From the NCBI RefSeq assembly GCF_003334405.1, contig NZ_QOWM01000002.1: a stretch of 64,000 bases of DNA. One strand, written 5' to 3'. A program made the position numbers and the translations under genes. Each line of letters opens with the position of its first letter. Positions within the stretch are counted from its first letter, which is position 1. This DNA comes from Escherichia coli (GTDB lineage Bacteria > Pseudomonadota > Gammaproteobacteria > Enterobacterales > Enterobacteriaceae). Below are positions 42,542 to 45,836 of the stretch, one piece after another. The notes beneath the pieces are model-generated. The model did not search any database and was not told the DNA's origin. It saw nothing but the letters and a program-made list of their open reading frames with translations.

Positions 42542-42645
42542 AATTCTTGACCTCTCTTTACTTCCTTTTATGGTAAGGGGCTGGACGCTACATTGTTAGC
42601 CAGATATTCTGCCCGGTATGTTCAAATTTCCTGAATGAGAACGAA

Positions 42646-43542
42646 ATGGCCAAAGAAAGGGCATTAACGCTGGAAGCACTACGGGTTATGGATGCGATCG
42701 ATCGCCGGGGCAGTTTTGCGGCGGCGGCGGATGAGCTGGGACGCGTGCCTTCCGCACTTAGCTACACCATGCAAAAACTGGAAGAAGAGCTGGATGTGGT
42801 GCTGTTTGACCGCTCGGGCCATCGTACCAAATTCACCAATGTCGGGAGGATGTTGTTGGAGCGAGGGCGCGTTTTGCTGGAAGCCGCAGATAAACTGACT
42901 ACTGATGCGGAAGCTCTCGCGCGCGGTTGGGAAACGCATCTCACCATTGTGACCGAAGCGCTGGTACCGACACCTGCCTTTTTCCCGTTAATCGACAAAC
43001 TGGCGGCAAAAGCCAATACCCAACTGGCAATCATCACAGAAGTGCTGGCGGGGGCGTGGGAACGGCTGGAGCAGGGGCGGGCGGATATTGTTATCGCGCC
43101 GGATATGCATTTTCGTTCCTCGTCGGAGATCAACTCGCGCAAGCTCTATACGTTAATGAACGTCTACGTTGCCGCGCCTGATCACCCGATTCATCAGGAG
43201 CCGGAACCGTTATCTGAAGTGACGCGTGTGAAATATCGTGGAATTGCGGTGGCGGATACCGCTCGTGAGCGCCCGGTGTTGACCGTACAGCTGCTGGACA
43301 AACAGCCGCGCTTAACGGTGAGCACGATTGAAGATAAACGTCAGGCATTACTGGCGGGGCTTGGCGTGGCGACGATGCCGTATCCTATGGTCGAAAAAGA
43401 TATTGCGGAAGGGCGGTTGCGTGTCGTCAGCCCGGAATCGACCAGCGAGATCGATATTATTATGGCCTGGCGTCGTGACAGTATGGGGGAAGCGAAATCC
43501 TGGTGTCTGCGGGAAATTCCCAAACTTTTTAACGGAAAATAA
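42646..43542 (+). CDS. yhaJ: LysR-type transcriptional regulator
   Basis: 298-aa ORF MAKERALTLEALRVMDAIDRRGSFAAAADELGRVPSALSYTMQKLEEELDVVLFDR..., divergent from yhaK. Confidence 0.85.
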   Translation: MAKERALTLEALRVMDAIDRRGSFAAAADELGRVPSALSYTMQKLEEELDVVLFDRSGHRTKFTNVGRMLLERGRVLLEAADKLTTDAEALARGWETHLTIVTEALVPTPAFFPLIDKLAAKANTQLAIITEVLAGAWERLEQGRADIVIAPDMHFRSSSEINSRKLYTLMNVYVAAPDHPIHQEPEPLSEVTRVKYRGIAVADTARERPVLTVQLLDKQPRLTVSTIEDKRQALLAGLGVATMPYPMVEKDIAEGRLRVVSPESTSEIDIIMAWRRDSMGEAKSWCLREIPKLFNGK

Positions 43543-43556
43543 TATTTATTATTGTT

Positions 43557-43582
43557 AATAAAAAGGGGCGAAATATCGCCCC
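43557..43582 (-). terminator. Intrinsic terminator after yhaI
   Basis: ggggcg-aaatat-cgcccc hairpin with a flanking A-run on the plus strand (U-tract on the minus-strand transcript). Confidence 0.6.
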
Positions 43583-43592
43583 AATTCTAAGA

Positions 43593-43949
43593 TTAATTTG
43601 AACCAAACTTCGGATCGTTTCCGTAACGATTGCTGCCAGAAGTACCTTCTGTGCAGAAAAAAACCAGAAGCACGAGCCAGCCAATAAACGGAACAAAAAA
43701 GAGCAAGGCCCAGGCACCTGAACGGTCGGTATCGTGTAAGCGACGGATAGCAAGCGCAAGGACGGGAAGGAAGGTTGCCAGCAAATAAAGCATAGACAGA
43801 TATGGAAGCTCCAGACCTAAAATCAATTGAATGACATTGATAATAGCGCCGACGATGGCGTTAATCAGAGTAAACATCCAGTACTCTTTACGACGTGCGC
43901 GACCAGAGAAACCAACATAATTTTTTAATACGGACAAATACCACTGCAT
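43593..43949 (-). CDS. yhaI: DUF805 inner-membrane protein
   Basis: 118-aa ORF MQWYLSVLKNYVGFSGRARRKEYWMFTLINAIVGAIINV...; paralogue of YhaH. Confidence 0.8.
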   Translation of the reverse strand: MQWYLSVLKNYVGFSGRARRKEYWMFTLINAIVGAIINVIQLILGLELPYLSMLYLLATFLPVLALAIRRLHDTDRSGAWALLFFVPFIGWLVLLVFFCTEGTSGSNRYGNDPKFGSN

Positions 43950-44190
43950 AAAAACATCCCTTTAATTAAAAGTGACGAAAGTCTATTCCGGGTATTGTGT
44001 AAATGCTATTCGTATCTTTCTTTTTCGGATGTTATAAAGGTTTTGATATTTAAGATAAATACATGGTTATTTTTTATAGGTAATTTATATAACGACATTG
44101 AAATATTTTAAATAAACATTAGTAAATTATTCATTCATCAACATAATGATAAAAGCCGGATGAGTCAGACATCCGGCGAGCAGATTTGTT

Positions 44191-44556
44191 TTAAGGTTCC
44201 AGTTTTGGATCTGGTCCAAAGCGGTTTTCGCCTGGCGTACCCGCCTGGCAGTTAAAGACGATGATAATAAGCCAGCCGATAAACGGGATTAAGAATAGCA
44301 GTGCCCACCACGCCGAGCGGTCGGTGTCGTGCAGGCGGCGGAACTGAACCGCCCACCACGGTAAAAACACCAGAATACCGTAGATTGTCGTCAGGATGCC
44401 TTCGCCACCAGCGCGTTGCCAGCCTAACATTTTATCCAGCAGCCCCAGCACGAACGTAAAGATGATGTTGACCAGAATAAACATCCAGTACTCTTTGCGC
44501 CGCGCACGACCCCGGAAACCGACATAATTTTTTAGTACTTTCAGATACCAGTCCAT
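44191..44556 (-). CDS. yhaH: DUF805 inner-membrane protein
   Basis: Track ORF trimmed to ATG at 44556 (MDWYLKVLKNYVGFRGRARRKEYWMFILVNIIF...), 121 aa. Confidence 0.8.
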   Translation of the reverse strand: MDWYLKVLKNYVGFRGRARRKEYWMFILVNIIFTFVLGLLDKMLGWQRAGGEGILTTIYGILVFLPWWAVQFRRLHDTDRSAWWALLFLIPFIGWLIIIVFNCQAGTPGENRFGPDPKLEP

Positions 44557-44697
44557 TTTTGCCTCAATTTTGCTCAATCACTTGTTTTTAAAGCAGCAAA
44601 TTAAGAATAGACGTGAATGAAATGGCAGTAAATATTCGTTCAAGGAATTAATAAAGTGCCGTGAAGGCGCGCTAAGACTGATGACAAGCGCAAAATC

Positions 44698-44798
44698 GCC
44701 AGATGCGCTACGCTTATCTGGTCTGCGCGGGTTATGCAATCTATTGAATGTACAATGTTTTGTATGTCAGATAAGGCGTTCATGCCACATCCGACATG
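44698..44798. repeat. REP-like palindromic units
   Basis: cgccagatgcgctacgcttatctggtctgcgcgg and gtcagataaggcgttcatgccacatccgacatg resemble REP half-sites. Confidence 0.5.
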
Positions 44799-44825
44799 AA
44801 CAACATGCACTTAGCTAATTATCAG

Positions 44826-44851
44826 AGGCACCTCGTAAGGTGCCTTTTTTT
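44826..44851 (+). terminator. Plus-strand-oriented intrinsic terminator overlapping the yqjG stop codon
   Basis: aggcacc-tcgtaa-ggtgcct hairpin followed by seven T residues on the plus strand; both flanking genes are on the minus strand. Confidence 0.5.
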
Positions 44852-45836
44852 AACCGAAGCGAACATCTCGTCCATGCGGTTCATCGAGATCCTGCCACGG
44901 ACCAATTGAAATAATCCCCGTAGGGTTGATGGTCTTATGGCTGCGGAAGTAATGATTACGGATATGATCGAAATTGACTGTTTCGGCGATCCCCGGCATC
45001 TGGTAGATATCGCGCAGAAAACCGTACAGATTCAGGTAATCGCTGATGCGGTGCTTATCACACTTGAAGTGGGTCACATACACCGGATCAAAACGCACCA
45101 GCGTAGTCCACAGGCGAATATCGGCTTCGGTTAGCTGGTTGCCGGTCAGGTAACGATGCTGGCCTAAAATCTGCTCCAGTCGTGCCAGCGATTCAAACAC
45201 TTTCGCCACCGCCTCGTCGTAAGCTTCCTGGCTGGTGGCAAAACCAGCTTTATACACGCCGTTGTTAACGGTGTCATAAATCCAGCCGTTAAGTTCGTCA
45301 ATTTTTGTTTGCAGGGCTGGAGGGTAGTAATCACCCGCTTTCGCGCCCAGCGCATCAAACGCGGTATTGAACATGCGGATGATTTCTGCTGATTCGTTGC
45401 TGACGATGGTGTGGTTCTTTTTGTCCCACAGCACGGGAACAGTAACTCGTCCGCTGTAGTGTGGATCGGCGTGGAGATAAAGCTGATACAGAAATTCATT
45501 TTGATAGAGCGTGTCTCCGGTTGCTCCCGGAAAACTGTCATCAAAGGTCCAACCGTTTTCCAGCATCAGCGGGTTCACTACGGAAACGGAAATAAACGGT
45601 TCCAGTCCTTTGAGTTTGCGCATGATCAGCGTGCGGTGCGCCCACGGGCAGGCGAGTGAAACATAGAGATGATAACGATCTTTCTCTGCGATAAAACCGC
45701 CTGTGCCAGTGGGGCCAGGAGCGCCATCGGCAGTGAGCCAGTTACGAAATGCGGAAGCTGAACGTTGAAATTTACCGCCGGTAGATTTGGTATCGTACCA
45801 GGTGTCATGCCAGACGCCGTCAATCAGTTGACCCAT
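44850..45836 (-). CDS. yqjG: Glutathionyl-hydroquinone reductase (Xi-class GST)
   Basis: Track ORF trimmed to ATG at 45836 (MGQLIDGVWHDTWYDTKSTGGKFQRSASAFRNWL...), 328 aa, contains the CPWA active-site motif. Confidence 0.85.
   Translation of the reverse strand: MGQLIDGVWHDTWYDTKSTGGKFQRSASAFRNWLTADGAPGPTGTGGFIAEKDRYHLYVSLACPWAHRTLIMRKLKGLEPFISVSVVNPLMLENGWTFDDSFPGATGDTLYQNEFLYQLYLHADPHYSGRVTVPVLWDKKNHTIVSNESAEIIRMFNTAFDALGAKAGDYYPPALQTKIDELNGWIYDTVNNGVYKAGFATSQEAYDEAVAKVFESLARLEQILGQHRYLTGNQLTEADIRLWTTLVRFDPVYVTHFKCDKHRISDYLNLYGFLRDIYQMPGIAETVNFDHIRNHYFRSHKTINPTGIISIGPWQDLDEPHGRDVRFG

Follow-up and report, generated by a model that had tools for sequence, protein, structure and literature searches.

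Anciently diverged DUF805 paralogues at the yhaH–yhaI locus of Escherichia coli, where yhaI behaves as an accessory cassette with two deep alleles

The yhaH–yhaI locus was analyzed within a 64,000-nucleotide stretch of E. coli DNA, hereafter the window, to which all coordinates refer. Two adjacent genes are encoded on its minus strand: yhaI (43593–43949), coding for a 118-aa protein and present here as the K-12-type allele (allele 1), and yhaH (44191–44556), coding for 121 aa when read from the ATG annotated in RefSeq, the mechanical ORF list placing its start at an upstream TTG (44577). The segment 43593–44556 is bounded precisely by the stop codon of yhaI and the start codon of yhaH, and both the ORFs and the RefSeq annotation agree with the initial annotation, which had described two adjacent minus-strand genes for small inner-membrane proteins. 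The pair consists of annotated, long-known E. coli genes: RefSeq names the genes at matching loci yhaJ, yhaI, yhaH and yqjG, and the region 43300–44900 was matched in 5,423 of the 5,426 complete E. coli genomes of our sample, some at 100% identity. yhaJ lies on the strand opposite to yhaI, the two genes being convergent, and no further DUF805 copy was found elsewhere in the 64-kb window. The two paralogues differ in composition, with a G+C content of 0.448 (GC3 0.46) for yhaI and 0.519 (GC3 0.62) for yhaH.

Two features of the surrounding DNA vary between strains. The yqjG–yhaH intergenic region (44610–44790) varies among E. coli strains far more than the DNA on either side of it, differing at up to 13 positions per 30 nt, and displays sub-threshold Rfam matches to the REP-associated RNA families naRNA4 and isrD; it is probably a REP/BIME element. 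In E. coli strain E8 (NZ_CP104526.1, 644273–646650), an IS1A is inserted within the yhaJ–yqjG stretch, the match to the window being split in two, with a total span ~780 bp longer than the query.

The two genes are separated by a spacer of 241 bp (43950–44190, minus strand), close to the AT-rich ~240 bp given by the initial annotation. Its G+C content is 0.278 and dips to ~0.20 in the core, for a window mean of 0.50, and it is where the yhaI promoter would be expected. A pattern scan detected a terminator-like hairpin 14 nt past the yhaH stop codon (44155–44177, minus strand; GCCGGATG...CATCCGGC then TTTTAT), with an 8-bp G+C-rich stem and an RNA fold of −15 kcal/mol (z-score −4.0), so that a predicted intrinsic terminator stands between yhaH and yhaI. 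A second hairpin follows yhaI (43565–43582, minus strand; GGGGCGATATTTCGCCCC then TTTTTAT; −16.3 kcal/mol, z-score −4.6), between the convergent yhaI and yhaJ. The best site in a sigma-70 consensus scan of the spacer scored 8/12, none reaching 9/12, and the Rfam search returned no match in or near the spacer. The spacer also holds a CpxR-box-like site with one mismatch (44112–44126; ATAAACATTAGTAAA), a kind of match that carries little weight in such AT-rich DNA. Two overlapping CpxR-box-like sites, one mismatch each, are present in the divergent yhaK–yhaJ intergenic region (42547–42571); across the whole window, such sites number 10, as against 4.1 expected by chance.

YhaI and YhaH align end to end (BLASTP, E 7e-48), with 66 of 118 residues identical (56%) and 69% similar. 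The long motif that had been noticed as common to both proteins is indeed found in each of them, in all its three parts (WYLxVLKNYVGFxGRARRKEYWMF, RRLHDTDRS and FIGWL). Because the similarity spans the full length of the proteins and is not restricted to this motif, it reflects duplication and not convergence. Full-length homology, adjacency at a distance of 241 bp and a common orientation make the two genes tandem paralogues. Both belong to the Pfam family DUF805 (PF05656), YhaI matching model positions 1–110 of 111 (6.5e-32) and YhaH positions 1–111 (5.1e-35). In an alignment of 52 diverse DUF805 members, GRARRxEYW, RRLHD and a C-terminal NxxG..DP are invariant or nearly so. AlphaFold yields a three-helix membrane model (helices 20–44, 50–73 and 78–99; pLDDT 91.7, pTM 0.81), for which the PDB offered no meaningful match by sequence or fold. 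YhaH and YhaI are thus predicted to be inner-membrane proteins of ~120 aa with three transmembrane helices, and the positive-inside rule would put the N-terminus on the cytoplasmic side and the C-terminus on the periplasmic side. The positive N-terminal GRARRKEYW and the RRLHDTDRS loop occur in YhaH and YhaI alike and, as these charged motifs are identical, the two proteins should insert the same way round. An oppositely oriented (dual-topology) pair of the EmrE/Fluc type was considered and discarded, the charge motifs being the same in both. We infer that YhaH and YhaI could act in the same membrane process, perhaps as oligomers.

To place the pair in a wider context, we examined the corresponding loci from 80 Enterobacteriaceae species, fetched with a yhaH query, together with those of the genomes harboring the closest yhaI relatives. 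Nearly all share the order yqjF-yqjG-yhaH-yhaJ-yhaK. Of the 80 species loci, 79 have a yhaH-type gene, and 75 hold a single DUF805 gene, of the yhaH type. A second DUF805 copy between yhaH and yhaJ occurs in five (Citrobacter amalonaticus, C. sedlakii, C. rodentium, Huaxiibacter and Lelliottia), and the slot of Intestinirhabdus alba holds the yhaI type only. Superficieibacter sp. 1612_C1 (L010:2769-4831) displays four DUF805 genes in a row, of 119, 123, 119 and 144 aa, two of which are only ~32% identical to yhaH or yhaI; the copy number in the yqjG–yhaJ slot therefore ranges from 1 to 4 in Enterobacteriaceae. In the three Citrobacter species, the matching spacers are 217–225 bp long with a G+C content of 0.28–0.30, and the yhaI-type genes have a lower G+C content than their yhaH neighbors, so the AT-rich layout is a property of the yhaI-type paralogue wherever it is found. 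The E. coli and Citrobacter spacers themselves gave no convincing alignment (41–48% identity), save for a short stretch ~30 nt upstream of the start codon. Note that a gene called yhaI is used in the literature as a species-specific LAMP/PCR target for Klebsiella pneumoniae (PMC8864245 and others). The yqjG–yhaJ slot of K. pneumoniae ATCC 13883 (L029) holds a yhaH-type gene only, so the Klebsiella “yhaI” lies elsewhere or is a different gene.

Within E. coli, yhaI is not universal. Among the 5,426 complete genomes, ~2,080 (~38%) carry the K-12-type allele, 2,292 (~42%) a second allele, and in 1,005 to ~1,080 (~19%) the gene is absent. ATCC 11775, NU14 and an O25b:H4 strain, which we take to be members of phylogroup B2, are among the strains without yhaI. 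Outside E. coli, the gene is likewise missing from E. albertii and one other Escherichia species. Comparison of the window with five other loci (L001, L012, L013, L014 and L043) delimits a cassette of 652 bp (43544–44195, minus strand). Besides yhaI and its terminator, it takes in the final codon of yhaH with its stop, the terminator of yhaH and the spacer. Strains with yhaH alone have ~40 bp in place of these 652 bp, made up of the yhaH ending and one hairpin (AAGCACCTTGTAAAAGGTGCTT), which immediately precedes the yhaJ end. The YhaH C-terminus reads ...LEP* in yhaI carriers and ...LEQE* in yhaI-less strains. E. albertii and one other Escherichia species have this LEQE* ending and the common hairpin too, in some cases along with a REP-like insert. 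This insert, of ~170 bp, is present in E. coli SCPM-O-B-8794, Escherichia sp. E1V33 and E. albertii (L012:3860-4080, L013 and L014), where it sits inside the yhaH/yhaJ terminator hairpin with the hairpin arms duplicated.

As the cassette is bounded on both sides by the points where its neighboring genes end, the junctions are equally compatible with an insertion and with a deletion. If the two-gene array were ancestral to Escherichia and Citrobacter, yhaI would have been deleted repeatedly, in B2 E. coli, E. albertii, Salmonella, most Citrobacter and others. The yhaI-type genes lying in the same slot behind an AT-rich spacer of ~220 bp in three Citrobacter species are in line with such a history, as is the similar synonymous divergence of the two genes between E. 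coli and C. rodentium (dS of 1.8 for yhaI and 2.1 for yhaH), which vertical descent predicts. However, this scenario needs many independent clean losses, with 75 of the 80 species loci being yhaH-only, and B2-type E. coli, the other Escherichia and E. albertii have in common the LEQE* ending and the same hairpin, no yhaI remnant being found in the yhaH-only Escherichia forms compared. We regard repeated loss as the less likely, though serious, alternative. Parsimony, applied to few outgroups, favors a gain of the cassette: yhaH is the conserved resident of the yqjG-[DUF805]-yhaJ slot, and the E. coli lineage would have acquired yhaI after the yhaI-less groups split off, by recombination from a relative already carrying a two-gene array.

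Published data indicate that yhaI is nearly silent unless induced (PMC3891560, PMC2731931). Ler, an H-NS antagonist, activates yhaI 36-fold in EHEC, where it is one of only four Ler-responsive genes outside the LEE island (PMC3891560). In a study of the Cpx response, yhaI was up 3.2-fold on arrays and 40.3-fold by qPCR, for 1.9-fold with yhaH (PMC2731931). In Salmonella, YhaH becomes more abundant as stationary phase approaches, and the sRNA SdsR represses it (PMC5137417). That the published induction of yhaI differs from that of yhaH would imply a promoter for yhaI in the spacer. Co-transcription of the two genes, with the spacer as a long intercistronic region, would fit their common strand and the lack of a consensus promoter in the spacer, and one microarray paper lists “yhaH yhaI yhaJ” as a putative operon (PMC2731931). 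This listing cannot be literal, since yhaJ is on the opposite strand. Moreover, a strong hairpin with its T-run lies 14 nt beyond the yhaH stop codon, the fold changes are far apart (40-fold by qPCR and 36-fold with Ler for yhaI, 1.9-fold for yhaH), and ~19% of the strains express yhaH without any yhaI downstream. We thus consider an operon quite improbable. The hairpin after yhaH, the 241-bp spacer and the differing fold changes argue together for independent expression, which the initial annotation had already thought probable; separate expression of yhaI and yhaH is likely, and each gene is probably its own transcription unit.

We then considered the age of the pair. In a neighbor-joining tree of DUF805 genes across Enterobacteriaceae, built without support values, the E. 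coli yhaI alleles and the Citrobacter, Superficieibacter and Intestinirhabdus genes form one separate, deep clade outside the entire yhaH clade, and the second copies of Huaxiibacter and Lelliottia form another branch. The dN/dS between E. coli and C. rodentium is ~0.17 for yhaI and ~0.04 for yhaH; yhaI thus evolves faster, and its deep placement could be partly a long-branch effect. The initial annotation had proposed a local duplication. The duplication itself stands, given the 56% identity over the full length of the proteins. If yhaH had recently been duplicated in tandem within E. coli and the copies had then diverged, two adjacent genes of similar length on the same strand would be expected, but such an origin is very improbable: synonymous sites between yhaI and yhaH are saturated (pS 0.74; dN 0.41), most Enterobacteriaceae carry yhaH only, as do E. 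albertii, the other Escherichia species and ~19% of the E. coli genomes, and YhaI is nearer to the closest yhaI-type proteins outside E. coli, the second copies in Citrobacter, Superficieibacter and Intestinirhabdus (60–68% identity), than to YhaH (56%). Nor is a recent origin masked by gene conversion, since over the first 32 codons yhaI is not unusually similar to E. coli yhaH, its pS being 0.46 with E. coli yhaH and 0.50 with Citrobacter yhaH; a recent conversion at the conserved 5′ end was rejected on the same values, which display no E. coli-specific drop. On these comparisons, yhaH and yhaI are anciently diverged paralogues rather than products of a recent duplication in E. coli.

The two yhaI alleles differ at 56–57 of 357 nt. 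The differences are concentrated in a patch of 174 nt (43641–43814, minus strand) corresponding to yhaI codons 46–103, which encode the periplasmic loop, TM2, the RRLHDTDRS loop and TM3. Identity between the alleles is 69% in the patch, 98–100% in both flanks and 95% in the spacer, and the YhaH protein is identical across the E. coli two-gene haplotypes examined (L002-L005, L092). Within the patch, dS is 1.68 and dN 0.21. With a dN/dS of 0.125, the divergence is, as estimated from these alignments, of genus level and under purifying selection. An imported recombination tract would look like this patch, which does not resemble the outcome of diversifying selection, and mosaic intermediates of the two alleles exist (e.g. 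protein P0017). Gene conversion from the neighboring yhaH was rejected as the source, the patch being 49–55% identical to yhaH and no closer to it than the rest of the gene. Neither the patch nor the cassette could be traced to a donor, the nearest yhaI-type proteins outside E. coli being those mentioned above.

Allele 1 of yhaI contains a T7 homopolymer (43657–43663, minus strand), of which T6 and T8 frameshift variants occur. Their products, of 139 and 131 aa, are common in a large protein collection, where one frameshifted YhaI protein (P0048) is found on 345 contigs and another (P0036) on 190. These forms may be real slippage or assembly errors. That yhaI is a phase-variable contingency gene switched by slippage in this run, as the hundreds of frameshifted contigs might suggest, is hardly credible, since the length rarely varies (T7 in 1,982, T6 in 4 and T8 in 11 of the ~2,080 complete allele-1 genomes), a run of seven bases is short by the standards of contingency loci, assembly errors at homopolymers would look alike and allele 2 is devoid of the run.

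We also searched for links to defense systems and mobile elements. PADLOC gave no defense family match for YhaH or YhaI, and in NCBIfam none of the families exceeded its cut-off. PHROG 12855 (“membrane protein”, moron category) matches both proteins, only as general DUF805 members. Matches at 50–51% identity in the phage collection came from a 691-kb Salmonella contig and from 2–3-kb unannotated records labelled phage, and complete phage genomes gave matches that are only 36% identical. The latter correspond to an unannotated ORF in the Stx phages 75/02 and POCJ13 (KF766125.2 / NC_029120.1, 16349–16693; KJ603229.1 / NC_025434.1, 16337–16681), which aligns with YhaI over 93% of its length and is a distant DUF805 member in a prophage. 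No source or close relative of yhaI was detected in the plasmid collection, and no mobility genes lie beside the cassette in the window. A phage or plasmid origin of the cassette, as a moron or mobile cargo, was rejected on these grounds.

Overall, the account that we hold with reasonable confidence combines ancient paralogues, separate transcription units and an accessory yhaI cassette that would have been gained in E. coli, a later 174-nt recombination patch giving rise to the second allele. What the proteins do is a more speculative matter. E. coli TK001 mutated in yhaH is resistant to phages PhiWec188 and PhiWec190, and plasmid-borne yhaH restores its sensitivity (bioRxiv 10.1101/2024.11.29.626071; PMC12695924); this result, from one group, is the only functional one that we found for the pair. 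The yhaI gene might be a silenced, accessory counterpart of yhaH, with YhaH as a phage-entry factor; once induced by envelope stress (Cpx) or Ler, YhaI would join or replace YhaH in the membrane and alter the sensitivity to phages, or to toxins relying on YhaH, with phage-driven balancing selection maintaining three states, i.e. the two TM2–TM3 alleles and absence. We put this forward as a conjecture with a small chance of being right.

The yhaH–yhaI pair itself is textbook annotation, and what we add to it is modest, mainly the recognition of yhaI as an accessory cassette and of its three states in E. coli, namely two deep alleles and absence. Both genes still belong to the E. coli “y-ome” of uncharacterized genes (PMC11551758), in a very large family without assigned function (28,974 cluster representatives at E ≤ 0.001). 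Experiments on DUF805 could be guided by the picture of yhaH as the conserved core, with YhaH as a phage host factor, and of yhaI as strain-variable, inducible and present in two deep alleles. K-12 should not be taken as representative at this locus.

The locus can be compared with several known systems. The YhaH and YhaI of E. coli K-12 listed under DUF805 in Pfam are the same genes as those described here, and family membership holds without any difference. By its upstream DNA with 28% G+C, its low-G+C coding sequence, its accessory distribution and its 36-fold activation by Ler, yhaI resembles xenogeneically silenced genes, which are repressed by H-NS and activated by Ler; the AT-rich spacer may be subject to H-NS-type silencing that Ler lifts, H-NS binding at yhaI not being reported in any paper that our literature search found. 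Unlike typical xenogeneic genes, yhaI sits in a cassette of only 652 bp, without mobility genes and without a close phage or plasmid relative. Inner-membrane proteins serve as phage host factors in other cases, such as ManYZ for lambda and NfrB for N4-like phages. YhaH is similar to these as a small inner-membrane protein needed for phage infection, the phage data concerning YhaH alone. Finally, many DUF805 proteins in the library contain 2–5 DUF805 domains per chain, complete in P0121, P0122, P0130 and P0131, so that side-by-side DUF805 units are a recurrent arrangement. In these fused chains, each domain has three transmembrane helices and the linker is helix-free, which would place the second domain in an inverted orientation despite the same positive motifs. 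The yhaH–yhaI pair and the four-gene array of Superficieibacter likewise set DUF805 units side by side but, unlike the fused proteins, yhaH and yhaI are separate genes, with separate terminators and different regulation.
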